Origin: Candidatus Micrarchaeota archaeon
Lineage (GTDB): Archaea > Micrarchaeota > Micrarchaeia > Micrarchaeales > CABMGC01
DNA length: 49,455 nt
Assembly (NCBI GenBank): GCA_021817505.1
Contig: JAKAUU010000015.1
Coordinates: forward strand, 1 to 49,455
Direction of reading: 5' to 3'
A model generated the notes under the pieces. That model was not told where the DNA came from, did no database searches, and saw nothing but the letters and a program-made list of their open reading frames with translations. Within the stretch, counting starts at the first letter, position 1; each line of letters opens with the position of its first letter. Shown here piece by piece: positions 8,716 through 47,435 of this stretch. The translations under genes and the position numbers were made by a program.

Positions 8716-8756
8716 TGGGCCCGCGGAGAGTCGGACTCCAGTTGCTACCGTGTGAA
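8716..8756 (-). repeat. att-like copy of the tRNA-Val 3' half
   Basis: 37/41 nt identical to 9601-9641 (anticodon loop to discriminator). Confidence 0.9.
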
Positions 8757-8784
8757 TTGGGCTGTCTATCTGGAGCTTTTATTA

Positions 8785-9585
8785 TTAATCAAGAATGTCT
8801 GATTTTGATTTGTAAGTAAGCATCGATTTTATGTTTTGGGCTTTTATATTCTTTTTTAATTCTTTTTCTATGAACATAAGCGATTCACTAGCTAATCTTA
8901 ATGAAGATGTATAGACTTTCGCAGTGTCGGTTGTGCCAACTAATGCAAAACATATAGGATAATCTATGGCAAAGTGTATGGGTTTCTTTTTTGCTGCGGA
9001 TAGTTGATCCCAAAGTATGTTTTCGCTTACGATACGCATGTTATTTGCAATTATTATGGGATTCTGTGAAGCTTCTGCTATCATATATGCTGCATATCTT
9101 ATCAAACGCGTATCATTTGCAATCTTTCCATTTCTAACCTTGCCTGCATATTCCAATAGATTTCTACAGGAATGCTCCAACATACTCTGTATATCTTCAC
9201 TACTGGCGTGTATTGTTCTAATTTTATCTAAAATTCTTTTGACGTTCCCATTCTTGTCAAAAAGTATTAGGTTACTCTTAGCGCTTCTGTCATATTGCAC
9301 ATCCAAACCTTTTGGGGTACTATATTTATCTATTGCCATAAACCATATGTCGACCTGAATCTTATCATCGAAATAGAAAAATTTCTTAAGCTTAGATTTT
9401 GGCTTCGTTAATGCAATAATATCAATGTCACTATATGGACCTTGGTCTCCCCTAGCTACACTGCCGTTAACTATTATACCTAAAACATTAGGATCTTTTT
9501 TCAGAATATTCTCTCTTGCATGATTTAGGGCTTTATTAAAACGTTTTCTTAGCGATTCCCTATCTAATCTCATATTTTTATTCAT
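8785..9585 (-). CDS. Kanamycin nucleotidyltransferase (ANT(4')/KNTase)-like protein
   Basis: GSVARGDQGPYSDIDI and LLEYAGKVRN resemble KNTase GSLGRQTDGPYSDIE and LFEYAGKWRN; markedly AT-rich (one sampled 60-nt line was 28% GC). Confidence 0.75.
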   Translation of the reverse strand: MNKNMRLDRESLRKRFNKALNHARENILKKDPNVLGIIVNGSVARGDQGPYSDIDIIALTKPKSKLKKFFYFDDKIQVDIWFMAIDKYSTPKGLDVQYDRSAKSNLILFDKNGNVKRILDKIRTIHASSEDIQSMLEHSCRNLLEYAGKVRNGKIANDTRLIRYAAYMIAEASQNPIIIANNMRIVSENILWDQLSAAKKKPIHFAIDYPICFALVGTTDTAKVYTSSLRLASESLMFIEKELKKNIKAQNIKSMLTYKSKSDILD

Positions 9586-9600
9586 CGTATCCCGATTCAG

Positions 9601-9671
9601 TGGGTCCGCGGAGAGTCGGACTCCGGTCTCTACCGTGTGAAGGTAGCGTCTTACCGTTGGACTACGAACCC
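9601..9671 (-). tRNA. tRNA-Val(CAC)
   Basis: Cloverleaf GGGTTCG...CTACC-TTCACAC-GGTAG...CGGAG-TCCGACT-CTCCG-CGGACCC-A. Confidence 0.93.
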
Positions 9672-9786
9672 ATATCCTTATGTCATCCTGACGATAGTAA
9701 GCTATTTAAACCTAATCATATAATAAAATAGCGCTGTCTGTGGTTTCTTCTACAGATAGTTGTGAAAATTCCTAATGGGAATTAGA

Positions 9787-9804
9787 TGTAGGCTTGAGCA
9801 ATGC
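9787..9804 (+). other. 5' arm of the pre-16S processing stem (pairs with ~11399-11415)
   Basis: ATGTAGGCTTGAGCAATGC is nearly complementary to GCATGCTCAAGCTACAT downstream of the 16S. Confidence 0.6.
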
Positions 9805-9845
9805 AAAGGAAGCTCGCGATACAATTGCAAAATAATTAAGTAATA

Positions 9846-11329
9846 ACTCCAGTCGATGCTGCTGGAGGACACTGCTATCAGATTTCGACAGCCATGCAAG
9901 TCAGCTTACAGACTTCTGTGAGCGGCGTACGGCTCAGTAACGCGTGGTCAATCTACCGTAGAGAAGGGGATAACCTTGGGAAACTGAGGCTAATACCATA
10001 TAGGATAGGGATTCTGGAATGAGCCCTAACTCAAAAGGTTGCGAATTGGAGCATTACCGCTCTACGATGAGACTGCGTCGGATCAGGCAGATGGCGGGGT
10101 AACGGCCCACCATACCTTTGACCCGTAGGGGATATGAGAGTAAGAGCCCCGAGAAGGGCACTGAGACAATGGCCCTAGCGCTACGGCGTGCAGCAGGCGC
10201 GCAATCTCCACAATGCGCGGAAGCGTGATGGGGGGAGTCTGAGTGATGGACTTCGGTTCATCTTTTGCCAAGTTTAGCAAGCTTGGAGAATAAGTGCTGG
10301 GTAAGACCGGTGGCAGCCGCCACGGTAATACCGGCGGCACAAGTGGTGTTCACTATTATTGGGCTTAAAGAGTCCGTAGCCGGCTAAAACCGTCTTGTGT
10401 GAAATATTGGTGCATGACGCCAATACGTGCATAAGATACCTTTTGGCTAGGGAGCGGGAGAGGTCAGGAGTATTCATGGGGTAAGAGTAAAATCCCGTAA
10501 TCCTATGAAGACTACCGGTGGCGAAGGCGCCTGACTAGAACGCATCCGACGGTGAGTGACGAAGGCTAGGAGAACGAATCGGATTAGATACCCGAGTAGC
10601 CCTAGCAGTAAATGATGCAGACTTTGGTGTTGCAACTGCCACGTGTGGTTGCAGTACCGTAGGGTAACTGTTAAGTCTGCCGCCTGGGGAGTACGGCCGC
10701 AAGGTTGAAACTTAAAGCAATTGGCGGGGGAGCACAACAAGGGGTGGATGCTACGGTTTAATTGAATTCAACGTCGGGAACATTACCTGGAGCGACGGCA
10801 GAATGATGGTCAGGCTAAAGACCTTACTAGACAAGCCGAGAGGTGGTGCATGGCGATCGTCAGTTCGTGGTGTGAACTATCCGGTTAAGTCCGGTAACGA
10901 ACGAGACCCTCATTTACAGTTGCCACTGGATTAGCGATAATCCAAGCACTCTGTCAAGACCGCCTTCGTTTAAGGAGGAGGAAGGAGAGGGCAACGGTAC
11001 GTCAGTATGCCCCGAATCTCCAGGGCTACACGCGGCATACATAGGCTGGCACAATGGGCTGCAACTCAGAGATGAGGAGCCAATCCCTAAAACCAGTCCC
11101 GGTCCGGATTGAGGGCTGAAACTCGCCCTCATGAAGTTGGAATCCCTAGTAATCGCTTGTCACTAACGAGCGGTGAATTTGTCCCCGCTCCTTGCACACA
11201 CCGCCCGCCAAGTCATCCAAGTAGGGCCTTAGTGAGGCAGCATCTTTAGATGCTTTCGAATTAAGGTTCTGTGAGGGGGGCTAAGGCGTAACAAGGTATC
11301 CGTAGGGGAACCTGCGGATAGATCACCTC
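9846..11329 (+). rRNA. rrs: 16S rRNA (divergent archaeal, Micrarchaeota-like; no intron)
   Basis: AGCCATGCAAGTC, GGATTAGATACCC, GAAACTTAAAG, CACACCGCCCG, GTAACAAGG...GATCACCTC; ~1484 nt. Confidence 0.98.
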
Positions 11330-11551
11330 AAAATACAATAAATGGATCACCTAAAAATAACCATTTCGTGTGCATAAAGCTGTTCGCGTTTTTCTGGCGC
11401 ATGCTCAAGCTACATTCATATTTTTTCTTTTCATCAGCACATAGCGCAAGCCATGTTTGTTTTTAAGTTTTCTAGACGCAGATTTGTATTCGGATTCTCT
11501 TCTGCGAGCACGCATATTTAATACAGAAGCTGCATATAAGAAAGCAGTCAG

Positions 11552-14500
11552 GTGTATAAAATAAGTTTTGCAACACGTTCATTGTTTTTTGTACTGCTTA
11601 TTTGCATGTCTGCAGGCATTGCAATGGCTTCAGGATTCGTAATCCCAAATAGCATAGTACATTATTCAAACCTTAGCATCTCCAACTCCCAGTCCTCTGC
11701 AACTGTGAAAGGTCTTCAGATAATGATCCCCTTCAATGCCCTAGCATATCAAACTTATGAGTCGAATTCCTTGAATAATATTGAATTCTTCTATACTAAC
11801 AACGGCACGGTTGTACCATCATGGATGGAGGGCAACCAGCTGGACTGGTATCAGCCTGCGAATACCCTTTACACGAGCCAGAATGTAATCTTCTGGATAA
11901 AGTATGCCCCTTCGATATCGGCAGGTTCCTCTGCAGTGAATACTGTCGCTATAGGATTTGCAAGCAAAACTGTAAATCTTCTGGATAATGTTGATACTGG
12001 AGAAGCTCCGCAGCTGTCATGTTCAAATCCTGCAAATACAATAACGTGCAATTACGGCAGATATGACGATGGCAGTAATGTATTCAATAATTATTGGAAT
12101 TTCTCCAGTAACAATACATGGTATAAAGGAGGACCTGGATACGGCCCTGCAGGCATAGAGTATGCAGACAATGGGATGAGAGTACAGGGATGGACATTTG
12201 ACAATGTCAAGGGGATAACCGCTGTTGGGAATATAATCACGACTCTTGTAAATGCGACAGGATATTCTGGGACAACTTGGGGAGGAGCATTGATACTTTC
12301 TAACAGCAGCGGCGGAAATGGTTTTGGAGATTATCCAGGGGTTGGCAGCATTACAGGAGTATACACGTACAGCCCTGTGATAAACCTGTACCATGGCCAG
12401 TATTTTACGCATCTGCAATTGGGTTCAAACATAACTGATCTTAACGCCCCGCATACAGTAAGCATAGGATTCAACAGTTCTGGGGAGATAAATTACACCT
12501 CGATTAATTATGGGAGCAGCATGGGAAGTGAGACATCCAACATGCTTGCACTGTTTCCAACAGGCTATTATAATCAGGGAGCATATGGCACAGGTATGCT
12601 TGCATGCACCAACTTTACCATAGCGTCAGCGCATGCGGAAATAACAACCATAAAGATAGAATGCTCAGGCAGATTCAGCAATAATGGCATTTTGTATGCA
12701 GGTGAAGGAGCAGATGGATGTGGCGGTGTGAGTTCCGCAGGAGGCAATGGAGAAAATTGCATAGGCAGCATCGGCTCTTTTGGAGGAAGCGGCGGGGCAG
12801 GAGGGGGAAATGCCACTCTTGGACTCATAGGAGGCTATGGAGGAAATACGCTTGCTAATGGAGGCATAGGAAGCACAGGTGCAGGCGGGAACGGAGCTGC
12901 TGCCCGGGCGCCATCTGTGATAGATGCTGCAAATGTTGCCTTGTGGGGAGGTTCACCTTCAACATATTTGTCAAGCGGAGGCGGTGGAGGGGCTGCAAAT
13001 GCTGGAGGAGCAGGAGAAGGAAGTTCCCAGGGATTGTTTATAGAGGGGAAGGCAGTTAATGCCGGAAATGTAATTGCAAGGCCTGGATTTAACGTAGGTT
13101 CCGGGTCAGGAGGGGCAGGAGCAGGAGCGTTGCTTATAGCATATGGAAATGGAGGGTATACTCCTGGAACTTATAACTTGTCAGGAAGCAGCGGAGGGGC
13201 TGCCGGGTCAGGCTGGGCTGCAGGCGGGAACGGAGGCGGCGGGCAACTTATCACTTATGATTATGGATCTAATTCCGTGCCTGTAAACGTTATTTTCCCA
13301 AAACAAACAACAACATATCCCATATTAGCTTCGTATCAAGGAAACGCATCTTATTATTACTTATATTCCAGATATATGCCACCGCTTGGCAGGATGCCTT
13401 CAGTAAGTTTTAGTAGCGCGCACATCACCCCATCATGTTCGGCATTCATCACAGATCCATCCAATAGCGTAGTTGATGTTGGACAGTATGAATCCTTCAC
13501 TGTTTCAGAGGGCAATTGCACGGCTCCGTACACATACAACATATTGGTTTCTAGCAGTGCAAAGCCTTCAGTTACAATACACGATTATTTGGTAACCGGG
13601 AGCAGTTCAAGATCCATAGTTTATTCGTTTCAGACAAATACTCTTGATCAGTCAAATTCTCCCGAAGTTGCAAACGTTATTGTAACCTCAGGCAGCAACT
13701 CAGTCGTATCGGCATATTCTTCTTCTTTTTATGTAAATCCACCATTATCTTTCGTGAGCCTGTCTTCTTCTCCCACGCTGCCTGTAACAGAATATACTGG
13801 AAATGCAGTAAAGTTCACTGCAAACATAAGCGGAGGCTCTGCCCCTTATTCCTACAATTTCCTTATTTATAATATAACAACTGGGAGCATAGTTGGCAAT
13901 TACCTGGCATCCAACTCTTCTACAAGCAACACCGTTTCATGGCAGATACCTTATTCGGTAGGGAACAATGCCCTTGAAGTAAATGTAATAGTGAGTGATG
14001 GGAGCTATGGAGGGGCTGAAAAGGTAAATAGCACATATATCAAACCGCTTTATACCAAAAGCATCGTTTCTGTTACAAACGTATTTCCAGATTCCTGCAT
14101 CTCGAACGGCGGTTGCGCAGTTACAGTAAGCGGCGCAGGATTTGAGAATGGGACATCTGTTATTTTCGGCAGCAACAGCGTAAATGCAATCAATGTTACA
14201 AATTCCAGCAGCATGCAGGTAACGGTACCTGCAGGTACTGTGAACAGCATTGTTGATGTGAGTGTAAAGAACCAGTTTGGCTCAACTGCCACTTGGAACG
14301 GCACATTCTACTACGGATGGATATTTATCTCTGATAACTTCTCCACTGGCAATTTTAATGGATGGAATGAAACTGGAAGCTGCTGCGTCACAGGAGGTAG
14401 TTTGTATGTTGTATCGGGTGGTCAGACAACATTCAGCAATACTTTGACACCTGCGCCCATATCAGGCAATACAGAAGCCATGATATGGTATCCATTCAGG

Positions 14501-16828
14501 CAGGGGATTGTGGATATAAATAGTACTAAGATGACGCTTGTAAGCGGCAATCCTTTTTCCCCAGGATGGGATTCTAATAATGGCGGTAGTGTTTATCTTG
14601 GAGGTTATTATGGCATAGTGACGAATAATGCAAGTGTTCTCCACTGGTTATATGGCAGTAAATTCTTAACTAATGGCAATTGGGCTGGAAACAATATTAC
14701 TATCTTTGAAGCGCGCAAGACAATAGCTTCAGTAACAAATTCGATATCGATGACATTGACAAGTTCTGCAGGAGGAAATAGCGGATACTTCCTTGCGGAT
14801 AAATGGTGGGAAGGGTTACAACAAAATATCGAATCATGTGCAAGTTCAACAGAATGCACCCTTACAAGTAATGTAGGGATAGAAAATAATATACCTTATA
14901 TAAGCGGAACAGATGATATAAATAATTTCTTTGGACAATCCTTCCTTAATAATGGACCTACAACCATGTTCGTAAGGGGCTATGTATACTTCCAAGCACC
15001 TACCCATGGGGGAGTGTATGGGCAGAGAAAGGTATACTACCTAAAAAATGAGTGCGGCGGCTCTTCAGGCCTGCCTTGTATAGGGATAGCATATATACTC
15101 AGCAGCTTTGTTTACAATCCGGAATATGGAAATGTTAGCATAAATGGCAATTCTGTAACTCTATTGTCTGGAGACGGATTCCCAACTGACGGAAGTTGGA
15201 ATGGTAAAGGAATACTGATAAATGAAAGCACAAACTATACTATCGCTTCCGTTAAGAATGGAACATACCTTACACTTACATCAAATGCAGGAAGGTATAC
15301 CGATGTAGGATATCAATCGTTAGCTAATGATATAGCTCTTACAAGCGATCTTCAATCCAATATCAACCCCGCTACGGGAAATTTGACAGATAGTGACCAT
15401 TATATGGCCGTTCCGTACCTTAACTTCAATCAGTGGTACGAGATACAGGTAGAGGCGGCGCTTAACACCCCTGGAGAAGCAAATGGTTATGTGAACGTTT
15501 GGATTAATGGCAGGTATAGGCCAGATCTGTCATTGTCCGGAATAGAATGGAGAAACTCAAGTAATGATGGAGGATGGCAGTATGTTGAAATAGGAAGGCA
15601 GCTTGATGCGGGCAATGGAACTGCTAGAACTGCCTGGACTAACGAATATAGATTCTGGGATGACGTAGCACTCTCTAATGCCGATACCCCAACACCTGTT
15701 CAGCTCCAGCCTATAAATACAACATTTAAAACGACAACTACTATTTCAGTATCTTCAACCTCTTCTACAACAACTGTTGGGACCACATCCCCGACAACCA
15801 TGCCTGTAACCACGGTTACATCAAGTGGAAATAGTGGTGGCGGAGGGGGAGGAGGGGCTGGAGGCGGTGGAGGATCCGGAGAGCCAGTGGTATTGGCATA
15901 TAACACCTCTTCGTTTAATGGGTGGAAAATACTTAACTTTACACAGGACAATTCTGAGAATCTGGTGATAGGCGGAAGATTATTTGGAATAACCTTGAAT
16001 TCCATATCGCCCACATTGGTAGATATTACCGTGAATGGGGTGGCGTATACGCTGCATGTCGGCACACCTTTGGCAATAGGCAGTAATTACTACCTTAATC
16101 TCAGTTCGATATCTTATCTCCCAATACTGGAGACTGCTTCTATTGAGTTGTATGTTAACAATACGGCGTCAAAGACCGTATCCTCAAGCAATTCATCTTC
16201 ACAGAATTACAACGTATCCATAAGCCTGAATGGCAGCAGTTTTGCTTCTGGAAGTTCACAGTACATAACGGCGCGGGTGGCAGACCCTTCAGATACGGTT
16301 GCAATATACACGAATGGTGTTCTCCAGGCAGAAGGTGAAGGAAGCGCAACATTCAACATCAACGTACTTTCAAAAGGGAATTATACCCTGCAGGCATGTG
16401 ATATAAGTGTATCTCCCAGAGCCTGCAGCGCTATAGAGAAGTTCTCCATACTTGCACCTTCTACTGCTGCCACGACTACCATATCCCAGGTCACAACTGT
16501 TGGCCAGACAAACACCTCATCTTCAACGGCATCTGAAACTGATGATATAGTACTGATGGTTGTTGCCACGATTGCAATAGGAACAATAATAGCATTCACG
16601 TTGCGCTACCGCAGGCATATGGGAAAAATGAGAGGCAATGACGGTGCAGGGCCTGAGCATGGCAGATTAACATACTCTTCTGAACAGCCTAAACAGGTTA
16701 ACCGGGCAGAAGAGCCTAAAGAAACAGGACCAACGCCTCCGGATGTAATTGGACAGCAGAATGAGGATAAACCTGATGAAAGTGCTGCAGGAACTTCTGC
16801 AGAACCTACAGGAGCAAAACAAGATTAA
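11552..16828 (+). CDS. Large cell-surface glycoprotein / adhesin (1758 aa)
   Basis: Signal peptide; DUF2341-like N-domain (NIEFFY..PSWME..IFWIK); Gly-rich tract; Ig/IPT-TIG-like domain (VTVSGAGF..VIFG..VTVPAG); LamG/lyase-like domain; Thr-rich and poly-Gly linkers; C-terminal TM then RYRRH; many NxS/T sequons. Confidence 0.85.
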   Translation: MYKISFATRSLFFVLLICMSAGIAMASGFVIPNSIVHYSNLSISNSQSSATVKGLQIMIPFNALAYQTYESNSLNNIEFFYTNNGTVVPSWMEGNQLDWYQPANTLYTSQNVIFWIKYAPSISAGSSAVNTVAIGFASKTVNLLDNVDTGEAPQLSCSNPANTITCNYGRYDDGSNVFNNYWNFSSNNTWYKGGPGYGPAGIEYADNGMRVQGWTFDNVKGITAVGNIITTLVNATGYSGTTWGGALILSNSSGGNGFGDYPGVGSITGVYTYSPVINLYHGQYFTHLQLGSNITDLNAPHTVSIGFNSSGEINYTSINYGSSMGSETSNMLALFPTGYYNQGAYGTGMLACTNFTIASAHAEITTIKIECSGRFSNNGILYAGEGADGCGGVSSAGGNGENCIGSIGSFGGSGGAGGGNATLGLIGGYGGNTLANGGIGSTGAGGNGAAARAPSVIDAANVALWGGSPSTYLSSGGGGGAANAGGAGEGSSQGLFIEGKAVNAGNVIARPGFNVGSGSGGAGAGALLIAYGNGGYTPGTYNLSGSSGGAAGSGWAAGGNGGGGQLITYDYGSNSVPVNVIFPKQTTTYPILASYQGNASYYYLYSRYMPPLGRMPSVSFSSAHITPSCSAFITDPSNSVVDVGQYESFTVSEGNCTAPYTYNILVSSSAKPSVTIHDYLVTGSSSRSIVYSFQTNTLDQSNSPEVANVIVTSGSNSVVSAYSSSFYVNPPLSFVSLSSSPTLPVTEYTGNAVKFTANISGGSAPYSYNFLIYNITTGSIVGNYLASNSSTSNTVSWQIPYSVGNNALEVNVIVSDGSYGGAEKVNSTYIKPLYTKSIVSVTNVFPDSCISNGGCAVTVSGAGFENGTSVIFGSNSVNAINVTNSSSMQVTVPAGTVNSIVDVSVKNQFGSTATWNGTFYYGWIFISDNFSTGNFNGWNETGSCCVTGGSLYVVSGGQTTFSNTLTPAPISGNTEAMIWYPFRQGIVDINSTKMTLVSGNPFSPGWDSNNGGSVYLGGYYGIVTNNASVLHWLYGSKFLTNGNWAGNNITIFEARKTIASVTNSISMTLTSSAGGNSGYFLADKWWEGLQQNIESCASSTECTLTSNVGIENNIPYISGTDDINNFFGQSFLNNGPTTMFVRGYVYFQAPTHGGVYGQRKVYYLKNECGGSSGLPCIGIAYILSSFVYNPEYGNVSINGNSVTLLSGDGFPTDGSWNGKGILINESTNYTIASVKNGTYLTLTSNAGRYTDVGYQSLANDIALTSDLQSNINPATGNLTDSDHYMAVPYLNFNQWYEIQVEAALNTPGEANGYVNVWINGRYRPDLSLSGIEWRNSSNDGGWQYVEIGRQLDAGNGTARTAWTNEYRFWDDVALSNADTPTPVQLQPINTTFKTTTTISVSSTSSTTTVGTTSPTTMPVTTVTSSGNSGGGGGGGAGGGGGSGEPVVLAYNTSSFNGWKILNFTQDNSENLVIGGRLFGITLNSISPTLVDITVNGVAYTLHVGTPLAIGSNYYLNLSSISYLPILETASIELYVNNTASKTVSSSNSSSQNYNVSISLNGSSFASGSSQYITARVADPSDTVAIYTNGVLQAEGEGSATFNINVLSKGNYTLQACDISVSPRACSAIEKFSILAPSTAATTTISQVTTVGQTNTSSSTASETDDIVLMVVATIAIGTIIAFTLRYRRHMGKMRGNDGAGPEHGRLTYSSEQPKQVNRAEEPKETGPTPPDVIGQQNEDKPDESAAGTSAEPTGAKQD

Positions 16829-17443: not shown

Positions 17444-17537
17444 TCCTTCTACAGCGGTTCGTTTTTTGTCTAATTAACAGATGTTGTTTAAATATGACTT
17501 TTGTCATTATTTATCTCTGATTTAGAGGGTGTGAGCT

Positions 17538-36547: not shown

Positions 36548-36618
36548 GCCAGGATGGCAGATCGGCTATGCGTCCGCCTGCAGAGCGGAGTAGAGGGGTT
36601 CAACTCCCTTTCCTGGCT
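36548..36618 (+). tRNA. tRNA-Cys(GCA)
   Basis: GCCAGGA...TCCGC-CTGCAGA-GCGGA...GGTTCAACT...TCCTGGCT. Confidence 0.93.
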
Positions 36619-36756
36619 TTCTGTACAGGGGTTATCTTTTCCCCACTATGGTGCCTGTTACATGATAGCTACGGCAATATTGTACATGCGGTTTAGGAAA
36701 TTGAGAGAGATGAGCTATTAAGTTTGCCATTCACAATGATTGCAGGACTGGGGCAT

Positions 36757-37269
36757 ATGGCAATCATAATAAGGAAGGCAGGAAAAGGAGATGCAAAAGG
36801 AGTGGCTAGACTTTGGGATGACGGTTTTGAGAGAGGATACTTCGGATACACCGGAACAAACAGGCGTAGAACTGTTAAAGACATCAGAAGATTTGAAGAG
36901 GTATATGCAAAAAATAAAAGAAACGAATTCGTATTTATTGCAATAGACAGCGTGAATGGGAAGGTTGTCGGCTCATGCACATTTTTTGCTAAAAAGGAGG
37001 GAAGGACCAGGCACAGGGGTGAAATGGGCTGGGCGATCCATCTGGATTACAGCAGGCAGGGGATAGCCACCAGGCTGGTTAAGAGAACGCTGGAAGAGGC
37101 GAAGAGGAGAGGGTTCAAAAAAGCCGAAGCCGAGGCTGCGGTTAAGAACATAGGCAGCGTCAGGCTTGCTAAAAAATGCGGCTTTAAGATAGAGGGAAGA
37201 AAGAAGAGAGGCCTGCTGCTCGATAGTGGAAGGTATGCAGACACTTATGTATTCGGCAAAGTCTTATGA
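36757..37269 (+). CDS. GNAT N-acetyltransferase
   Basis: HRGEMGWAIH..YSRQGIAT motif A; N..SVRLAKKCGFKIEG motif B. Confidence 0.9.
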   Translation: MAIIIRKAGKGDAKGVARLWDDGFERGYFGYTGTNRRRTVKDIRRFEEVYAKNKRNEFVFIAIDSVNGKVVGSCTFFAKKEGRTRHRGEMGWAIHLDYSRQGIATRLVKRTLEEAKRRGFKKAEAEAAVKNIGSVRLAKKCGFKIEGRKKRGLLLDSGRYADTYVFGKVL

Positions 37270-37582: not shown

Positions 37583-37600
37583 TCCCTTTCCTGGCTTTCT
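37583..37600 (+). repeat. att-like copy of the tRNA-Cys 3' end
   Basis: TCCCTTTCCTGGCTTTCT, 18/18 identical to 36605-36622. Confidence 0.8.
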
Positions 37601-39686: not shown

Positions 39687-39740
39687 TCGTAAAACCTGCA
39701 ACCATTATTAATTTTGGCTGCGGAATATGCTTGTGATAAT

Positions 39741-40001: not shown

Positions 40002-40003
40002 AA

Positions 40004-40075
40004 AGCCACCGGCGAGAATTGGACTCGCGACCTTCTGCTTACCATGCAGACGCTCTACCACTGAGCTACGGAGGC
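40004..40075 (-). tRNA. tRNA-Thr(GGT)
   Basis: GCCTCCGTAGCTCAGTGGTAGAGCG-TCTGC-ATGGTAA-GCAGA...GCGAG-TCCAATT-CTCGC-CGGTGGC-T. Confidence 0.92.
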
Positions 40076-40182
40076 GCAACGTAAGCGTAACGTAAAGATA
40101 AGTATATATACTTACTATTGATAATTAGTAGTGGAAGCTTATTTAAAAAAATCGGTCAGAAACGGCTTCAAACTGTGATCTT

Positions 40183-40848
40183 ATGGTATTACTAGAAATA
40201 GGCATAGCATTGGTTGTCATAGTGTTCCTTGCAATAATAGGCATGATGTACAACGGGCTTGTCGTGAAGAGGAACAGGGTACAGGACGCGTGGGCGCAGA
40301 TAGACGTGCAGCTAAAGAGAAGGTATGACCTGATACCTAACCTGATAGACACTGTCAAGGGCTATGCGAAGTACGAGCGCAGCGTGCTCACCGATGTCAC
40401 AAGGCTAAGAACATCCCTTGTAGCAGGCTCTATCCAGGACAAAGCTGCTGCAAACAACCAGCTCACACAGGCTCTCAAATCCATATTCGCAGTTGCAGAG
40501 AACTATCCCGACCTTAAGGCGTCGGCGAACTTCCAGCAGCTGCAGCAGGAGCTCGCAGCCACAGAGGACAGGATAGCCTTTGTTCGAACCTCTTACAACG
40601 ATTATGTACTTGATTACAACAATGCTACGCAGACCGTGCCTAGTGTCTGGATAGCATCCGCATTCAACTTCAAGAAAGCTGACTTCTTCCAGGCACCTGA
40701 TGAGGAAAAGAAGGTTGTCAAGGTCGATTTCAGCGATCTTTCAGGATCGCAGCAGGCACAGCAGCCTGCGCCTGATCCACAGGCGGCTGCTAAACCTGCA
40801 GCAAAGCAGCCTTCCAAAAAGGCGGATAATAGTCAGGATAGCAAATAG
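40183..40848 (+). CDS. lemA: LemA family protein
   Basis: YNGLV..AWAQIDVQLKRRYDLIPNL, AVAENYPDLKA. Confidence 0.95.
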   Translation: MVLLEIGIALVVIVFLAIIGMMYNGLVVKRNRVQDAWAQIDVQLKRRYDLIPNLIDTVKGYAKYERSVLTDVTRLRTSLVAGSIQDKAAANNQLTQALKSIFAVAENYPDLKASANFQQLQQELAATEDRIAFVRTSYNDYVLDYNNATQTVPSVWIASAFNFKKADFFQAPDEEKKVVKVDFSDLSGSQQAQQPAPDPQAAAKPAAKQPSKKADNSQDSK

Positions 40849-40864
40849 ACATAGATGATCGGTT

Positions 40865-41776
40865 ATGGCAAGCTTCTTCGATGAGATAGCGAGAAACAGG
40901 CTTAAGTCACTGCTGCTCATGGTGCTCTTTTCCCTCCTCTTCTTCGCGATAATATATGCAGTGGTATGGCTCTTCGGAGGAGGTCTCTTCGGCCTGATGG
41001 TCGGAGGGGCGATAGTGGTCGGATATGCCTTCTTCTCATACTTCTATGGGGCAAGCATGGTCCTGAAGATGTCGCGTGCCAAGCCTGCCAGCCAGAATGA
41101 TTATCCTGTGCTTTACGAGGTAGTGGGAGGTCTTGCTGCCGCAGGCCAGATAAAGATGCCGAAGATATATGTCATAGACACAAAGGACCCTAATGCGTTC
41201 GCAACTGGCAGGAACAAGAACAACGCTTCCGTAGCAGTAACCACGGGGCTTCTTGGAATGATGAACAAGGATGAGCTTGAGGGCGTTCTTGCTCATGAGA
41301 TATCCCATATATACAACAACGACATACAGTTCATGATGCTCACAGTTGTCTTTGGCGGAGTGATAGGGCTGATAGCAGCATTCTTCAGGTACTCGTTCTT
41401 CTTCGGGGGCTTCGGAGGCAACAACAGGAACGGAGGACTGCTGATATTGGTGGAGCTTGCACTCGCGATAATAGCACCGATAATAGCGACTTTGCTGAGG
41501 CTGGCGATATCAAGAAAGAGGGAGTATATGGCAGACGCAAACGGAGCCAGAATGACAAGGGATCCTGGGTCGCTTGCAAGCGCACTCGGCAAGATAAGGG
41601 ACTTTACCCAGAACCCGCAGAAGGTTGCGGCTGCGCAGCAGGGAAGCAGTTATGCGAACCCTGTGACAACATATCTCTACTTCTCGAATCCGATAAGCAT
41701 GAAATCCATAGGGAATCTGCTCTCCACGCATCCTCCTATAGAGGAGAGGATAAAAAGACTGCAGAACATGCACTGA
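40865..41776 (+). CDS. htpX: HtpX zinc metalloprotease (M48)
   Basis: PNAFATG, HEISH, SRKREYMAD, STHPPIEERI. Confidence 0.95.
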   Translation: MASFFDEIARNRLKSLLLMVLFSLLFFAIIYAVVWLFGGGLFGLMVGGAIVVGYAFFSYFYGASMVLKMSRAKPASQNDYPVLYEVVGGLAAAGQIKMPKIYVIDTKDPNAFATGRNKNNASVAVTTGLLGMMNKDELEGVLAHEISHIYNNDIQFMMLTVVFGGVIGLIAAFFRYSFFFGGFGGNNRNGGLLILVELALAIIAPIIATLLRLAISRKREYMADANGARMTRDPGSLASALGKIRDFTQNPQKVAAAQQGSSYANPVTTYLYFSNPISMKSIGNLLSTHPPIEERIKRLQNMH

Positions 41777-41786
41777 CCGTGTCTAT

Positions 41787-42131
41787 TTAACGGGATATGA
41801 GCCAGTTAAGGAAACCGTGGCCGGCCCGCTCTTCGTAATAGGCATCTGCCGAACGCATCATTGTCTTGAGATCCTCTACTGATTTTGCGCTGATCCCGTT
41901 TACCCTTACTTCATCCTTTGTTATACATATATCTGTAATCCTGCTGGGATCTTCCCTGCTACAGAGCAGGTGCGACTCCCCTCTGTCAGTCGCAAGCCCG
42001 TATCTCTCCCTTGAGCTGCGGTTCAAAGATATCAGCTCGTTTATCGAACTTATGTGCTTCCCGTCTATCGCAACCCTGTTTCCCGAGATTACTACATCTC
42101 TTCCGAACTTTGCTCCTTCCACAAGTGCCAT
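41787..42131 (-). CDS. Hypothetical protein
   Basis: 114 aa ORF with a weak internal repeat (ISGNRVAIDG / ITKDEVRVNG). Confidence 0.55.
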   Translation of the reverse strand: MALVEGAKFGRDVVISGNRVAIDGKHISSINELISLNRSSRERYGLATDRGESHLLCSREDPSRITDICITKDEVRVNGISAKSVEDLKTMMRSADAYYEERAGHGFLNWLISR

Positions 42132-42201
42132 CTTATCACGCTTGCCAGTAGAATCCCGTGATATAAATAGCTTTGCAGGACAGGCGCTGCTTTGGATAAT
42201 G

Positions 42202-42305
42202 TGCAGGGGGTGAGATTCGAACTCACGAAGGCGCTAGGCCACAGGATCTTAAGTCCTGCGCGTTTTTCTGTGGCTCTTTGCCAAACCAGACTCTGCAACC
42301 CCTGC
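42202..42305 (-). tRNA. tRNA-Leu(TAA) with a 20-nt intron at position 20/21 (42265-42284)
   Basis: CAGGA-CTTAAGA-TCCTG anticodon arm; D-loop insert forms a BHB: TCTG-GTT-TGGC/GCCA-CAGA-AAA. Confidence 0.9.
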
Positions 42306-42318
42306 AGGTTAAGTGCAA

Positions 42319-43053
42319 TCATGCGTACATTGAAGGGCCGCTGGTGCTCTCCGCAGTGCTATTGTACTGTTCATGCGTGTCCTTTACGTTCTTGAGCATG
42401 TCGCGTATCTTCGCCTCTACGAGCTTTGCTTCCTTGTCCAGCTCATCCAGGTCTATATCCAGGTTCATGAGCTTCTGCAGGCCCTGTATTGCAAGTTCGG
42501 CATACTTCGGATCTGTGATTGCAGGATCGACCTCTACGAGGACATTGGCAGCCTTTATGCCGTACTGCTCCGCATTCACAAGTATTATCGCATTGACTCC
42601 GGCAACCGCGCCTTCGTTTATCGGTTTCATGCCGCTTGATACGGCCTTCTTGAGCATATCCTGTGGACCGATCAGGTAGAGGTTGTCCTTTGGCTTCTTT
42701 ATCGCCATGCCGCTTATCGAGAATATCTGCTTTATCTTGTTCCTCTTGCAGAACGAGATTATCTCCATTGCAACGTCGCTTACCGCATCTACAGGTATGA
42801 CGAATTCCGACATGATTATTACTATCTTGAATTTGTCCGATTTGTAAAGTCTTGCAGGGGACATCGGAACTGCATTGTGTATAGCTGCTATTGGAGGGAA
42901 CCTCTGGCTTGCTATATAGCCTATGTATTCGGGCTTAAGCTTGTCTATCATGTAGCTCGCAGCCATCGGACCGACGAGACCCGCGCTTGGGAAGCCCTCT
43001 ATTACAGTATATCCTGATAGATCATAATCCTTGAACAGCTTTATCTCAACCAT
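42319..43053 (-). CDS. PAC2 proteasome assembly chaperone family protein
   Basis: IEGFPSAGLVG, FPPIA, DPKYA, C-terminal HbYX motif (MYA). Confidence 0.9.
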   Translation of the reverse strand: MVEIKLFKDYDLSGYTVIEGFPSAGLVGPMAASYMIDKLKPEYIGYIASQRFPPIAAIHNAVPMSPARLYKSDKFKIVIIMSEFVIPVDAVSDVAMEIISFCKRNKIKQIFSISGMAIKKPKDNLYLIGPQDMLKKAVSSGMKPINEGAVAGVNAIILVNAEQYGIKAANVLVEVDPAITDPKYAELAIQGLQKLMNLDIDLDELDKEAKLVEAKIRDMLKNVKDTHEQYNSTAESTSGPSMYA

Positions 43054-43196
43054 AGCATCAGTAGACTCTGTGCAAGAATATTTAAATAGGCTTTGCAGAT
43101 TTTCCATCTATCCTCGGTTTTACCTCGTGTATAAAACTGTCGTCTTTACCTGTGATATATATAAAAAGCCTTCGACGGATATATTATCGTGGTAAA

Positions 43197-43439
43197 ATGG
43201 CTGAAAGAGTAGGATCAGAAAAGATCCGAAGGGAAGACGGCTATCTATATTTCCTCGGAAAGGATGGCGCAGTCTGGAAGACCCCTATGAAGAATAATCC
43301 GCGAGGTAGAAAGGCCCGAGTGAGCGAAGAGAAGGTAAAGAGACAGGAAGGCTATCTCTACTTTATAGACAAGAGCGGATACGTAGCAAGGACAAAGATG
43401 AACAGAAGGGGAAGAGTTGCAAGAAAGAAAAGGAGATAA
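43197..43439 (+). CDS. Small basic protein with a duplicated GYLYF motif
   Basis: EKIRREDGYLYFLGKDG.V / EKVKRQEGYLYFIDKSGYV; Arg/Lys-rich tail; own TATA box and T-rich terminator. Confidence 0.8.
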   Translation: MAERVGSEKIRREDGYLYFLGKDGAVWKTPMKNNPRGRKARVSEEKVKRQEGYLYFIDKSGYVARTKMNRRGRVARKKRR

Positions 43440-43450
43440 CTCTTCAGAAT

Positions 43451-43502
43451 TGTTTTCTTTTCTTTTCTTTTTTTCTAATTCTTTTTATTTTACCTGTTTT
43501 TT
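43451..43502 (+). terminator. Oligo-T terminator
   Basis: Long T-rich tract directly after the stop at 43439. Confidence 0.6.
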
Positions 43503-43562
43503 GGCATACAGCATATGTTTTAATATCTGCATGCAGATGCTTTCTCATTAGAAGTGCATAAC

Positions 43563-44093
43563 ATGGAGATTAGGACCTTGATAATAATTGCAATAATAGT
43601 TGTCCTGCTCATAGTCGCCTACATATTTATTGTTTCACATAGGAGTACTGCCCAGTCGACTACCTCCACCTCAGGGCCTATAAACGGAACGACGAGTATG
43701 ACCGTGCCCCCTTATATCACTACTTATAACTCGGTCTCAAACAGCAAAAACATAACTAATTTGACAGGATTGAATGTGAAGACCATTTACACAGGGCCTG
43801 CCGAATCTGGCGGATTGTCGTGCAACGGGATAAGCAAGGCTTACTTTATAGACACTGTGGGCAAATTCCACGCAGACTCGAATTTCAGCTTTTACTTTGA
43901 GATAAGCTCGCCAAGCTGCAACTTTACCATAACGAGCATAAATATTGACAATCCGGGGTTCAGGATTGTCAGCGAGCAGCCGCCTGTGCCTTACTACATG
44001 CCGAGCTTCTCCAATATAGAAGAGGTTGTAACCCTGACTTCGCCTGTTGGCAATTTTACAGGGCCAGTCTCAGTAACGATTAATGCGAAGTAA
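43563..44093 (+). CDS. Hypothetical membrane-anchored secreted protein (Ig-like)
   Basis: N-terminal TM, Ser/Thr linker, beta-rich domain, N-glycosylation sequons. Confidence 0.7.
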   Translation: MEIRTLIIIAIIVVLLIVAYIFIVSHRSTAQSTTSTSGPINGTTSMTVPPYITTYNSVSNSKNITNLTGLNVKTIYTGPAESGGLSCNGISKAYFIDTVGKFHADSNFSFYFEISSPSCNFTITSINIDNPGFRIVSEQPPVPYYMPSFSNIEEVVTLTSPVGNFTGPVSVTINAK

Positions 44094-44139
44094 AGCATGG
44101 TCTGATTCTTTGCTCTCGGATATTGGCAAAGGCAGGCGT

Positions 44140-44880
44140 TCATCCCATAAGCGCATATGCTTTTTTAATGCTCTCCTTTGCCTCATGCATATTTGAGATC
44201 CTTCCTTTTATCTGGTCTGCGGACATCCTCTTCGAACATATCATTATGCTGTTACCAGACGCCAATTGGGTCTTCAATGAAAAGGTCTTGTAGTTCTTGG
44301 CAAGGCTGCCCATGTCAACCGTATGCTCTATCGAATTAATCGCGATGATGCCATCGCTTGAGAGCAGCTTGTATGAATCCGTGAAAAAATCCTGGCTCGT
44401 GAAGGCCTTGGGGATCTTGCTCCCTTCGAATGCGTCTAGTATTATGAGGTCGTACCTTGAATCGCTCTCTTTGACAAACTTTGCCCCGTCTCCCACTATT
44501 ACCCTTGCTCCCCCTATGTCAAAATGCTCCTTCGCAAGTTCGGCTATATCGCCGTCTATCTCTACTACATCGAGCTCCAGGTTTGAATATAAGGCGCTGA
44601 GCTGCCGTGCTATCGTCCCTCCTCCCAAGCCTATCATAAGCACTCTCGGCCTTTCATAAAGACCCGGAAGGATTGCGAAAAGGTCCCAGTAATTGTTTGT
44701 ATAGTAGTCGTCCTTGTTTGCTATCGAGTATATGGTTCCTATCCCATGGCACATCATGGTGGTGTTGTTCCTCCTCAAAACGAAGATGCTTCCGCGCTGG
44801 TCGACGACCTTCCAGCCGTTTAGAACATATGCGAATCGGGTCAGCGCGTTTGTTATGCTTACCATGAAAAGCAGCTCCAT
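44140..44880 (-). CDS. Spermidine synthase-like SAM-dependent transferase
   Basis: VLMIGLGGGT, VEID, GDG, YDLIILDAF. Confidence 0.85.
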   Translation of the reverse strand: MELLFMVSITNALTRFAYVLNGWKVVDQRGSIFVLRRNNTTMMCHGIGTIYSIANKDDYYTNNYWDLFAILPGLYERPRVLMIGLGGGTIARQLSALYSNLELDVVEIDGDIAELAKEHFDIGGARVIVGDGAKFVKESDSRYDLIILDAFEGSKIPKAFTSQDFFTDSYKLLSSDGIIAINSIEHTVDMGSLAKNYKTFSLKTQLASGNSIMICSKRMSADQIKGRISNMHEAKESIKKAYALMG

Positions 44881-44972
44881 TCTAGCTCTTTGAACAGAAC
44901 TAATAAATATTTGATTGTTATAAGAACTTATTGTGGAAGGCAGCGAATTGATGATGGTTAGATGGTGGGAGA

Positions 44973-45434
44973 ATGGGAAGAGATGGCCAGGGAAACGTAG
45001 TGAGGATCTACGGCAGGAAGCTGTATGACGAACGTGTAACGGTAGGCAACACTGGGGAGGAGAGAGCGAGCACCTATCTCTACATAGCACGTGGATGGGA
45101 GGACCAGCTCAAGGACCCTTTGAAGATTACTCAGAACAGTGCCAATTCTGCAGAGTTCAACAGCGGTGCGTCAAGCAGATGGGAGAAGGCAGGGGATTAT
45201 GCCGTTGATCCGCATAAGAGGGCAAGCTATTATGAGAGGGCTCTGCGTTTTGCGAAGAGCCTGCCTGAAGAGGAGCGCAGGATAAAGGAGCTGAGGCTGT
45301 CGCTTAAGATGAGGAGGAGCAGTGCACATCTCCATGAAGCCGCTGCCGAGAAGCATGGCGTCGTCATAAATATGGATGCATATAGGAAGAAACATGAAGA
45401 TGGGGATAAGCTCGAAGGCTCGTTGCGTTCATGA
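44973..45434 (+). CDS. Hypothetical helical protein (paralogue of 45479-45916)
   Basis: Shares VVR.Y.RKLY, WEKAGDY and LKMRR with its neighbour. Confidence 0.7.
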   Translation: MGRDGQGNVVRIYGRKLYDERVTVGNTGEERASTYLYIARGWEDQLKDPLKITQNSANSAEFNSGASSRWEKAGDYAVDPHKRASYYERALRFAKSLPEEERRIKELRLSLKMRRSSAHLHEAAAEKHGVVINMDAYRKKHEDGDKLEGSLRS

Positions 45435-45478
45435 GTTGCATTGTTCATTCGGCATTTGCATTATAGAAGGTGATTAAC

Positions 45479-45916
45479 ATGGATGGGGAAAAAGTGGTCC
45501 GCCTTTATAACAGGAAACTATACACAAGCAGGATAGGCATACTTCCAAGGGACAGATCGGATGCATCCGAAGTTTATGAAAGGATGGCCTTGAGCGAAGA
45601 GAAGATGCTCTTGGATCCTGAAAACAGAAGGCATATTGATCCTAAAGCGATAATCGACCTGCTGCGCACCATCTCCGAGGATTGGGAACGTGCAGGCGAT
45701 TATGAACGTGTGAAGGATAGGAAAGGGCACCTTTACGACCATGCGATGAATTCCGCAGAGATACTCGCTGCCAAAGGGGACGATTCGAATGAGAACAGGC
45801 TTCTGCTCAAGATGAGGAGAGATGGCTGCATAAGCGATGTTGGAAGGTATAAGATAAACAGGAGCAACGAGTATGTAACAAAAGAGGCTCTGAAAAAGCT
45901 GCGTGAGAAGAGTTAG
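45479..45916 (+). CDS. Hypothetical helical protein (paralogue of 44973-45434)
   Basis: VVRLYNRKLY, WERAGDY, LKMRR; AGGTGA SD upstream. Confidence 0.7.
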   Translation: MDGEKVVRLYNRKLYTSRIGILPRDRSDASEVYERMALSEEKMLLDPENRRHIDPKAIIDLLRTISEDWERAGDYERVKDRKGHLYDHAMNSAEILAAKGDDSNENRLLLKMRRDGCISDVGRYKINRSNEYVTKEALKKLREKS

Positions 45917-45936
45917 CAGGTATCTAATAGCCATAA

Positions 45937-46024
45937 GCATGGCTGACGCTATGCGTTCTTTCCTAAAATAAAAAATAGGAAAGGAGAAGGAAAGCTTGTT
46001 TGTGTAATGCGTTAGTTGCGGTGC
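45937..46024 (-). repeat. 88-bp direct repeat, copy of the 23S 3' end and trailer
   Basis: Identical to 47348-47435. Confidence 0.95.
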
Positions 46025-46080
46025 AGTGTCTTCGCAATAAGAATTAAGAACTTAAGCACGAATAATTATTAGGTGGAACA

Positions 46081-46317
46081 ATGAAACAACAAGAGATTCA
46101 ATTGGATAACGATAAAGGCATAAATGCCAAACTAGACAATATAACAAAACTGTTGAGTACGATAGCGCTAGAGCTGGAGGAGCTCTCAAATTCAGGGGCG
46201 GAGATAAAGATGAGCAAAAAGGCCAAGGCAGAGATAGAAAAGGGCCTTAGAGAGCTGGAGAGTGGGAAGGGCAGAACATACAAGAACTGGAGCGAATTTG
46301 ATAAAACGTTAGGGTAG
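46081..46317 (+). CDS. Type II antitoxin (RelB-like)
   Basis: 78 aa, C-terminal IEKGLRELESGKGRTY..F motif; directly upstream of a RelE-like toxin. Confidence 0.75.
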   Translation: MKQQEIQLDNDKGINAKLDNITKLLSTIALELEELSNSGAEIKMSKKAKAEIEKGLRELESGKGRTYKNWSEFDKTLG

Positions 46318-46334
46318 TTCCTGTTGGTGATGTT

Positions 46335-46595
46335 TTGTCTTATTCTGTGACGTTTGTGCCGAGAGTCGAAAAGGCATTTGGCAAGGCGAAGAAACGGGAT
46401 ATGGAAACATACAAAGAAATAGCAAGGAAGATAGCGAAGATTCTAGAGGATCCGTATCGCTTTGGCAAGCCTATGCGCAGTGAATATAAGGGATTGTGGG
46501 AAATACATGTTAAGAACAACTTACTTTACTATAGGATAAATGAAAGGTCAAAGTCTGTTGAGATAGTCGCATACCTCGACCATGATACGCTGTGA
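46335..46595 (+). CDS. RelE/ParE/YafQ-family toxin
   Basis: YSVTF..KAF.K..ILEDPY.FGKPMR..YKGLWEIHV..LLYY.I...VEIV...HD. Confidence 0.85.
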   Translation: MSYSVTFVPRVEKAFGKAKKRDMETYKEIARKIAKILEDPYRFGKPMRSEYKGLWEIHVKNNLLYYRINERSKSVEIVAYLDHDTL

Positions 46596-46642
46596 TAATA
46601 TATCAAAGCGGCATAAGGATTTGCCGTGATGTTTTACCGCAG

Positions 46643-47311
46643 TCATTTCCAGAATCGTAAAAGAAAACGCTCTCTTCCTCCAAAATTTTCTATCACTGCA
46701 ATATATCGCCGACTTCCTGCTTTCCCCATAATTCTTCTTATTGTGCTTTTATTGTGGACATACTGAGGCATGGAGCCTATCCCGGCAGTTTTTCCGGTAG
46801 TTATCCGTTTGCCAGACCGCACTGCCTCGTCTCCTACGGATTTGTTTGTGTGAATTTTTGGAACTACCCTCGCATAGCGCATTTCTATAAAAGCAAATCC
46901 GCCTTTCTTTAAAACCCTCAGCATCTCGTTTACCGCCTTCAACTGATCTGCTTCCTTATATAGTTCGCTGAAAGCGTTCCATGTGCATATTATTGCATCA
47001 AAACTGTCTTTCGCATAAGGCAGTCTTCTCATGTCTCCTATTCTAAAATGGATATCCAGGTGCTCTCTTTTGGCAGCTGCCTTTGCATCTTTAACCAGCG
47101 AAGGCGTGATATCCATACCTTCTATCGAATAGCCTTGCCTGGCCAGAGGAATAGTGAATCTGCCATAGCCGCAAGCCAGGTCAAGAATATGCTGCCTTTT
47201 GTTTAACAGCTTTTTTATATATTTCAGCTCTGATGCGGTGTGAAGCGCTGTTTTTCTTTGCTTTAGGCCCTTGGCAGTCAGCTTAGTATAAAACTGCTTG
47301 GATGTCCTCAT
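46643..47311 (-). CDS. Class I SAM-dependent methyltransferase
   Basis: ILDLACGYGR, GMDIT, GDMRRLP, FDAII, RVLKKGG. Confidence 0.9.
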   Translation of the reverse strand: MRTSKQFYTKLTAKGLKQRKTALHTASELKYIKKLLNKRQHILDLACGYGRFTIPLARQGYSIEGMDITPSLVKDAKAAAKREHLDIHFRIGDMRRLPYAKDSFDAIICTWNAFSELYKEADQLKAVNEMLRVLKKGGFAFIEMRYARVVPKIHTNKSVGDEAVRSGKRITTGKTAGIGSMPQYVHNKSTIRRIMGKAGSRRYIAVIENFGGRERFLLRFWK

Positions 47312-47347
47312 AAACTATATATAAGATAGAGCTGTTTTTAAGATTTG

Positions 47348-47435
47348 GCATGGCTGACGCTATGCGTTCTTTCCTAAAATAAAAAATAGGAAAGGAGAAG
47401 GAAAGCTTGTTTGTGTAATGCGTTAGTTGCGGTGC
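47348..47435 (-). repeat. 88-bp direct repeat overlapping the 23S 3' end
   Basis: Identical to 45937-46024; contains the CTTTCCTA-N10-TAGGAAAG inverted repeat. Confidence 0.95.

Follow-up and report, generated by a model that had tools for sequence, protein, structure and literature searches.

Three islets behind stable-RNA genes

The window analysed here is the initial 49,455-base stretch of contig C30 in a metagenome-assembled genome of a Candidatus Micrarchaeota archaeon (G000; 839 kb, 34 contigs, 84% complete). Its DNA is present in mine-drainage, mine-tailings and sediment metagenome runs from 9 studies. Within the window, three short gene islets lie immediately behind the genes for tRNA-Val, tRNA-Cys and 23S rRNA, and each is closed on its far side by a second copy of the 3' end of that RNA gene. 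A first reading of this DNA (hereafter the original prediction) had described the islets as integrase-less cassettes bracketed by direct repeats of 41, 18 and 88 nt. All three repeats were recovered, position for position, with identities of 90%, 100% and 100%, respectively, and each overlaps the annotated end of the RNA gene in question.

The first islet adjoins tRNA-Val(cac), which is encoded on the reverse strand (9600–9671) and is 71/71 identical to the tRNA-Val gene of five same-genus genomes. The proximal repeat (9601–9641) represents the 3' 41 nt of this gene, and the distal one (8716–8756, same strand) is a partial copy of the tRNA's 3' half, identical at 37 of 41 positions (blastn E = 6e-8 against the whole genome). 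The four mismatches are confined to the distal copy, where the last of them lies 5 nt short of the end; by our own reading of the tRNA fold, two would fall in the variable loop and two would give G-U pairs, a pattern that fits an element-borne tRNA mimic and later decay of the displaced host copy alike. The 844 nt between the repeats are almost filled by an 801-nt open reading frame (ORF) on the reverse strand (8785–9585, 266 aa), which encodes a nucleotidyltransferase that has kanamycin nucleotidyltransferase as its nearest relative of solved structure (E = 2.6e-6). Six homologs were found in a set of 5.8 billion proteins, and none of the 400 other genomes of the phylum held a close homolog. 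The GC content of the islet is about 0.34, compared with about 0.45 in its flanks. As the start codon is located only 15 nt past the end of tRNA-Val, with no T-run in the spacer, the arrangement allows read-through from the tRNA into the nucleotidyltransferase gene. On its other side, tRNA-Val lies 175 nt upstream of the 16S rRNA gene, which is on the other strand.

The second islet follows tRNA-Cys(gca) on the forward strand (36548–36618), a gene that is 71/71 identical in four same-genus genomes. Here, the repeat is an exact 18-mer in which 4 nt follow the tRNA's final 14 nt; it occurs at 36605–36622 and again, flanked by a short inverted repeat, at 37583–37600. The 18-mer recurred in none of 100 dinucleotide shuffles. 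Between the copies, a GNAT acetyltransferase is encoded on the forward strand (36724–37269; likely start ATG 36757), which is present in 8 of 401 genomes, this one included.

The third islet is situated behind the 23S rRNA gene (47404–49455, reverse strand, cut by the window end). An 88-nt segment that joins the 23S rRNA gene's final 32 nt to a 56-nt conserved trailer with a T-rich hairpin (47348–47435) is repeated without a single mismatch at 45937–46024, on the same strand, where the stop codon of the host ORF 45470–45916 is 20 nt away. The cargo comprises a gene for an S-adenosylmethionine (SAM)-dependent methyltransferase on the reverse strand (46643–47311), inside a 751-nt module (46597–47347), and, on the forward strand (46081–46595), a putative antitoxin gene (78 aa, no Pfam match) followed by the gene of a ParE/RelE-family toxin (86 aa, 46335–46595). 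Read-through expression from the 23S rRNA gene looks improbable because a T-rich hairpin (T6/T4) inside the 88-nt repeat intervenes between it and the methyltransferase gene. The 16S (9846–11331) and 23S (47404–49455) rRNA genes are unlinked in this genome, lying 36 kb apart on opposite strands.

Pfam scans and structure relatives bore out the cargo that had been proposed, namely a kanamycin nucleotidyltransferase-like enzyme, a GNAT protein and a SAM methyltransferase with a toxin-antitoxin pair. In each of the three islets, the first cargo gene points the same way as the RNA gene, and neither the Pfam scan of the cargo nor tblastn revealed a recombinase encoded inside any of them, both as foreseen. 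The cargo also matches classes reported as common in integron cassettes in the part of that work available to us (PMC9668308), in line with the original prediction.

Further support for the islets came from independent public contigs of four studies, which span both junctions of islet 2 as well as the distal repeat of islet 3. In viral contigs, we found no relative of the methyltransferase or the GNAT protein, and neither the distal tRNA-Val fragment nor the start of the 23S trailer was matched exactly. Likewise, a 36-nt 23S end had no exact match among the Joint Genome Institute (JGI) metagenome contigs searched.

Orthologous sites in relatives are empty or differently filled

We next compared the three sites with their counterparts in relatives. 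The related genomes used in this work include G002, G003, G004 and G006 (same genus), G005 and the complete genome G023. The unpublished genome G038 was counted only in tallies (the tRNA-Val, tRNA-Cys and 23S comparisons, the PF00589 count and the junction-unit search). The distance from tRNA-Val to the homolog of the ORF 8289–8624 is 153–189 nt in three same-genus genomes, compared with 1037 nt here, and this difference equals the 885-nt spacing of the repeats. Moreover, the flank past the distal tRNA-Val copy aligns with the flank that directly follows tRNA-Val in relatives. In G002, about 1.1 kb of other genes occupy this site, with no repeat. Similarly, 122–380 nt separate tRNA-Cys from the M13 peptidase gene in four relatives, as opposed to 1113–1337 nt in our genome. 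At the 23S site, the similarity to the sister species (98%) is bounded exactly by the edge of the 88-nt repeat, at 47348; the conserved trailer ends on the same 12 nt in all species, with complete divergence beyond. This site is cleanly empty in G002 (127 nt vs 117 nt expected), and it is occupied by a 78-aa ORF in G006 and by a Nudix gene together with a 60-aa ORF in G004, without repeats.

Identical cargo fixed in all relatives would have refuted the original prediction by its own terms, and this is not the case. With same-genus sites that are empty or differently filled, the three islets are real, recent and lineage-specific insertions. Other species carry small cargo of their own at the same docks, and the RNA gene ends therefore represent hot spots for species-specific cargo.

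Duplicated RNA gene ends recur beyond the window

The original prediction had suggested scanning for further 3'-end duplications, and the pattern indeed recurs at tRNA-Ser and tRNA-Thr in the same genome and at tRNA-Glu and tRNA-Asn in sister species. When every tRNA called by ARAGORN was compared with the genome by blast, 3'-end duplicates were found downstream of 4 of the 36 tRNAs and upstream of none. The sister-genome scan covered 30 tRNAs per genome (G004 and G006) and 1.5 kb downstream only; the upstream control on the 30 tRNAs of G004 yielded nothing except a true Gly-Gly tRNA pair. A scan with 20-nt probes and up to three mismatches proved too strict, recovering only tRNA-Cys and the true Gly-Gly tRNA pair. 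No duplication of the 16S rRNA 3' end was found.

The largest array is located behind tRNA-Ser(gct) on contig C4 (7793–15560), where four junction units occur about 1.2, 3.0, 5.0 and 8.9 kb downstream. In each unit, the tRNA's final 13 nt are found again, together with a T-rich run, and the units share 80–86% identity over 80–125 nt; they were found in none of 40 relatives. The array carries genes for a ParE-like toxin, an aminoglycoside phosphotransferase (APH)-family kinase, a PIN toxin and three GNAT proteins. The segment around each tRNA-end copy is promoter-like or T-rich, and the modules in between measure 1.2–3.9 kb.

Behind tRNA-Thr(tgt) on contig C18, three copies of a 22–24-nt core (12 nt of the tRNA plus downstream bases) delimit two modules, and one of these cores sits inside an imperfect inverted repeat. 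The first module encodes an APH-family kinase and an internally deleted paralog of the islet 2 GNAT protein (about 330 nt lost), which lies 134 nt after the repeat; the second carries HicA and a HicB-like ORF. A GNAT gene is accordingly found 134 nt past the core in two docks, tRNA-Cys and tRNA-Thr(tgt). The same tRNA-Thr(tgt) gene, together with its upstream 50 nt, is present in identical form on C18 (24388–24509) and C26 (1060–1181), and the two contigs diverge right past the tRNA end: one branch leads into the islets with the GNAT remnant, APH kinase and HicAB, the other to an S51 peptidase gene. This fork may equally reflect a strain polymorphism at the dock or two copies of the gene.

Taken together, the islet cargo on C30, C18 and C4 includes relatives of all three aminoglycoside-modifying families (a nucleotidyltransferase, GNAT acetyltransferases and two APH-family kinases).

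In the sister species, tRNA-Glu(ttc) of G006 is followed by a 1.35-kb islet with one co-oriented ATPase gene, an 18-nt repeat and then the orthologous host flank. The same tRNA in G004 has a 0.66-kb islet with VapB-like and PIN-like ORFs (51-nt repeat at 98%), and tRNA-Asn of G004 a 0.97-kb islet with AbrB-like and RelE-like ORFs (71-nt repeat at 96%); these four small ORFs were named by reading their sequences and not by Pfam. A hand count based on ORF lists gave, for 12 modules, a first gene that clearly shares the direction of the RNA gene in 8, runs opposite to it in 3 and is ambiguous in 1, which is no significant bias.

A contig end lies within 5 kb downstream of 11 of the 36 tRNA genes and within 5 kb upstream of 3 of them, with about 7 expected either way. 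This skew hints that assemblies break in the variable DNA behind tRNA genes.

Strain variation in the third islet

The public metagenome data consist of contigs only, from which rare variants drop out, and contig joints with a side shorter than 30 nt (for example, 40078 to 47423) were set aside as cross-organism noise. Within these limits, a contig of run X9 runs from the distal repeat of islet 3 through the toxin gene and 8 other letters back into the 88-nt repeat. This strain variant is hence a 580-nt packet with the toxin-antitoxin pair only, in which 8 nt replace the 751-nt module 46597–47347. Correspondingly, runs X9 and X10, from two other studies, show almost no depth over the methyltransferase gene.

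No integrase detected here, but integrases adjoin the same tRNAs in relatives

We then searched for enzymes that could have inserted the islets. The 84%-complete genome gave no match at E ≤ 1 to PF00589 (tyrosine recombinases), PF16795 (SSV-type integrases) or PF00239 (serine recombinases), nor any TnpB match that passed the cut-off. An unlinked tyrosine recombinase or XerA, which the original prediction had envisaged, was accordingly not found, and tblastn with two integrases of G023 detected no integrase remnants of the kind expected for decayed islands. G004 likewise had no tyrosine recombinase match, its genome being incomplete. As our genome is only 84% complete, its lack of an integrase is not proven.

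PF00589 matches occur in 24 of 41 genomes searched, and for 7 of the 10 best-scoring integrase loci a tRNA is located within the flank of about 1.5 kb. In the six integrase loci whose coordinates were compared, the tRNA lies just upstream and is co-oriented, as it is in an eleventh locus, from G005. Several of these tRNAs are the docks described above. Both tRNA-Cys and tRNA-Thr(tgt) of G023 are followed by an intact integrase (about 400 aa) that has a start codon of its own, a finding that ruled out our idea that the tRNA-Cys integrase might be an SSV-style split gene. The G023 tRNA-Cys element ends in a 13-nt repeat of the tRNA's last 13 nt, 9.9 kb away, with an imperfect palindrome around the joined site; this 13-nt core occupies the same position as the 14+4-nt tRNA-Cys core in our genome, and both have an inverted-repeat context.

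An integrase also adjoins tRNA-Glu(ttc) in G003 and G005. In the same-genus genome G003, it belongs to a 5.07-kb element that further encodes a DNA methylase and an HNH nuclease and that ends in a 55-nt, 89% copy of the tRNA-Glu 3' part. By our own reading, this copy looks like the 3' portion of another tRNA-Glu, one with a CTC anticodon and a matching stem that could still fold. The host flank past the G003 element is orthologous to that past the G006 islet, so that a single site of the genus is occupied by an integrase element in one genome (G003) and by integrase-less mini-islets in two others (G004 and G006). The G006 ATPase at this site and the 389-aa ORF of the G003 element show no relationship (E = 2.5).

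Two further candidates were dismissed. A 458-aa ORF between tRNA-Glu and a homolog of the nucleotidyltransferase in another Micrarchaeota genome, considered as an integrase, is seryl-tRNA synthetase, and no repeat is present. Two tRNA-Val copies 2.2 kb apart in G039 resembled an islet and turned out to be a segmental duplication of the whole gene neighbourhood; this 2.17-kb tandem duplication (C1, 555954–558190) comprises the whole tRNA-Val(gac) gene and the adjoining gene for a serine/threonine-rich, surface-type protein.

Other features of the window

The segment 42206–42308 contains stretches identical to parts of two tRNA-Leu genes and has very high contig depth; neither ARAGORN nor Rfam called a tRNA there, and it may be an intron-bearing or otherwise unusual tRNA-Leu gene. 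At positions 1–2810, two gene-sized copies lie in tandem about 1.75 kb apart, with 79–85% identity overall and an exact stretch of 127 nt.

Origin of the islets

The original observation is confirmed and extends beyond the window, and its interpretation is partly supported. We consider it probable that the islets are att-flanked, integrase-less mini-elements, comparable to the cis-mobilizable elements (CIMEs) of bacteria, that were made by RNA-3'-end-specific tyrosine integrases from other elements. The insertions themselves, their repeats, the empty sites and the lack of a detectable recombinase were observed directly, as were the integrases at the same tRNAs in relatives; that such integrases made these particular islets, and that the islets can still move, is what we infer from them. 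Under this model, a circular DNA would carry, besides the cargo, an attachment site that duplicates the 3' end of the RNA gene, and a tyrosine integrase would recombine the circle with the extreme 3' end of the stable-RNA gene. The RNA gene would stay intact, and the element-side copy would become the distal repeat beside the old host flank, the two copies forming the attL/attR bounds. The integrase would reside outside the islet, either supplied by integrase-bearing elements at the same tRNA sites or lost from the islet, and repeated use of one site would build tandem arrays. The cargo would be accessory, with modifying enzymes of the nucleotidyltransferase (ANT), acetyltransferase (AAC) and APH types, a methyltransferase and toxin-antitoxin pairs, of which the last could aid the persistence of the packets. 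Of the trans-acting capture system that had been proposed, a tyrosine integrase working in trans is thus plausible, with integrases at the same tRNAs in relatives, but there is no sign of one dedicated capture system.

Several observations weigh against this model. The methyltransferase module of islet 3 differs between strains with no extra repeat copy and, lacking a repeat of its own, must have been gained or lost by another route. No islet-skipping (empty-site) joint and no circular junction were seen in the contigs; all runs being contigs, from which rare variants drop out, this result says nothing about rare forms. Direct-repeat modules are found at two protein-coding genes as well, so that RNA genes are not the sole docks: on contig C14, 53-nt repeats (9950–10002 and 11798–11850) enclose a 1.85-kb module with a ferredoxin, a serine hydrolase and an ORF of no known kind, and on contig C24, repeats of about 45 nt (approximately 4484–4560 and 5387–5463) enclose a single NIF3-family gene. 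Of the docks, tRNA-Val(cac), tRNA-Ser(gct) and the 23S 3' end were not found to have an integrase beside them in any of the 41 genomes searched, and an unbinned element could encode the integrase. Finally, the closest homolog of the nucleotidyltransferase outside the lineage (64% identity) follows a seryl-tRNA synthetase gene without flanking repeats, and a GNAT homolog adjoins tRNA-Cys in another genus, but inverted and with no repeat.

Among the alternatives, a circle with a stretch of an RNA 3' end might have entered by host homologous recombination, stable-RNA genes being the only DNA conserved enough between species. The tRNA genes are indeed 71/71 identical across the genus, compared with 65–80% for the adjoining coding DNA, the 88-nt and 18-nt repeats are perfect, no recombinase was found in the genome, and the arms of different docks have no common motif beyond chance. 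We nevertheless regard this route as unlikely: the tRNA-Val mismatches would confine the crossover to the last 4 nt unless they arose later in the distal copy, the cores can be as short as 13–24 nt, and the short inverted repeats around the Cys and Thr cores resemble those at recombinase core sites. Nor would homology account for the integrases at the same tRNAs in relatives or for the origin of the first circle with a single homology segment. A dedicated, integron-like platform, with fixed docks at RNA ends, single-gene cassettes carrying RNA-end mimics, one recombinase in trans and read-through from RNA promoters, would fit the modules that hold one or two genes and scarcely any spare DNA (as in islet 1), the arrays with conserved junction units, the 580-nt strain variant of islet 3, the cargo classes common in integron cassettes and the GNAT genes 134 nt past the core at two docks. 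We find such a platform rather improbable, as neither IntI nor any other tyrosine recombinase is detectable in the genome, clear co-orientation of the first gene is limited to 8 of 12 modules, a T-rich hairpin stands between the 23S rRNA gene and the first gene of its cargo, and the internally deleted GNAT gene indicates ordinary decay within islets. In addition, the repeats copy the local target instead of a shared attC-like site, and only chance-level 9–10-mers are common to the arms of different docks, which speaks against a single dedicated system.

The islets could also be dead remnants, left over from ordinary integrase-bearing elements after deletions and without further mobility. The GNAT gene on C18 that lost about 330 internal nt, the 10% divergence of the tRNA-Val repeat and the 5–10-kb integrase elements at the same sites in relatives all point in this direction, and small genomes of this kind are expected to shed non-functional DNA fast. 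However, no islet contains an integrase fragment; all 9 modules here and three in sister species keep both repeats while every trace of an integrase is gone, the perfect 88-nt and 18-nt repeats indicate recent events, and the cargo of the small tRNA-Glu islets is unrelated to that of the G003 element at the same site. This explanation therefore appears quite doubtful to us. That repeats and islets stem from chimeric joins in the assembly is hardly credible: the genome is admittedly a 34-contig metagenome assembly, with two contigs that fork at tRNA-Thr(tgt), but contigs from four runs of four studies cover islet 2 across both junctions, and one contig runs through the distal 88-nt repeat into islet 3 with 3 differing letters over 3064 nt.

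Within the model of integrase-made mini-elements, the evidence leaves room both for travel as small units and for shrinkage in place. Tight packing, the conserved arms at tRNA-Ser, the perfect 88-nt and 18-nt repeats and the lack of integrase fragments favour arrival as small units, and the internally deleted GNAT gene favours shrinkage. A more far-reaching possibility, to which we give little weight, is a cassette economy with the recombinase acting in trans, in which packets of one or two genes, equipped with mimics of tRNA or rRNA 3' ends, would be shuttled between strains and species. Equally speculative is the notion that these packets form an integron analogue, docking at conserved stable-RNA ends that include the 23S processing trailer, with a tRNA promoter that may express the first gene.

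Relation to known systems and biological significance

The closest counterparts are the CIMEs of streptococcal ICE/IME systems (ICE, integrative and conjugative element; IME, integrative and mobilizable element), which, according to the portion of the source available to us, have lost integration and transfer genes, keep attL and attR, and accrete in tandem with incoming elements (PMC5704250). Like CIMEs, the islets lack an integrase, have direct repeats with a tRNA 3' end as their bounds, contain no integration or transfer genes (Pfam, tblastn) and form tandem arrays at one site; at some docks only (tRNA-Cys, tRNA-Thr(tgt) and tRNA-Glu(ttc)), related integrase-bearing elements use the same site in other genomes. 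They differ in that the host is an archaeon with a genome of less than 1 Mb and no conjugation genes in view, that they are much smaller (0.6–2 kb, one or two genes) and that one dock is the 23S rRNA trailer. Mobilization by accretion would be conjectural for the islets.

Likeness is also found to the clusters of attC sites lacking integrases (CALINs), i.e. integron cassette arrays without an integrase, archaeal ones included, for which action in trans has been proposed in the part of the report at hand (PMC9668308). Both comprise units of one or two genes in series without a local integrase, and, as far as that part of the report covers it, both have cargo rich in toxin-antitoxin pairs, methyltransferases and acetyltransferases. 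In contrast to CALINs, however, the repeats described here copy the end of the local RNA gene and not attC (no dedicated attC model was run), the docks have no motif in common, and no IntI is present (PF00589, 0 matches at E ≤ 1 in the 84%-complete genome). The islets likewise differ from integrative mobile elements exploiting Xer (IMEX) in lying at RNA gene ends and not at dif with a host Xer; the genome has no PF00589 match, and dif was not sought.

With archaeal integrative elements at tRNA genes and gene capture of the SSV type, the islets share the duplicated tRNA 3' end, the archaeal host and foreign genes fixed beside a tRNA. Such 'gene capture' by split SSV-type integrases was reportedly described by She et al. 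in 2001. Unlike in that process, no split or whole integrase occurs in or beside the islets (PF16795, 0 matches; cargo not integrase-like), and the integrases of relatives are intact and adjoin the tRNA. Our limited literature searches yielded no description of integrase-less mini-islets in DPANN archaea and no earlier case of docking at the 23S trailer; in the accessible text of a review of archaeal tyrosine recombinases, the term 'rRNA' does not occur (PMC8371274).

Ultra-small symbiotic archaea are thought to be poor at gaining genes. In the genomes studied here, accessory genes enter precisely behind stable-RNA genes, in packets of integron-cassette size and in the absence of a detectable recombinase. 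The presence of relatives of all three aminoglycoside-modifying classes among the cargo may be a sign of chemical warfare within acid mine drainage communities, and a dock at the 23S trailer would add rRNA to the targets of integration. If the packets still move, they would represent a principal path for gene flow in these lineages, and a duplicated RNA 3' end would serve as a simple marker for their accessory genes.

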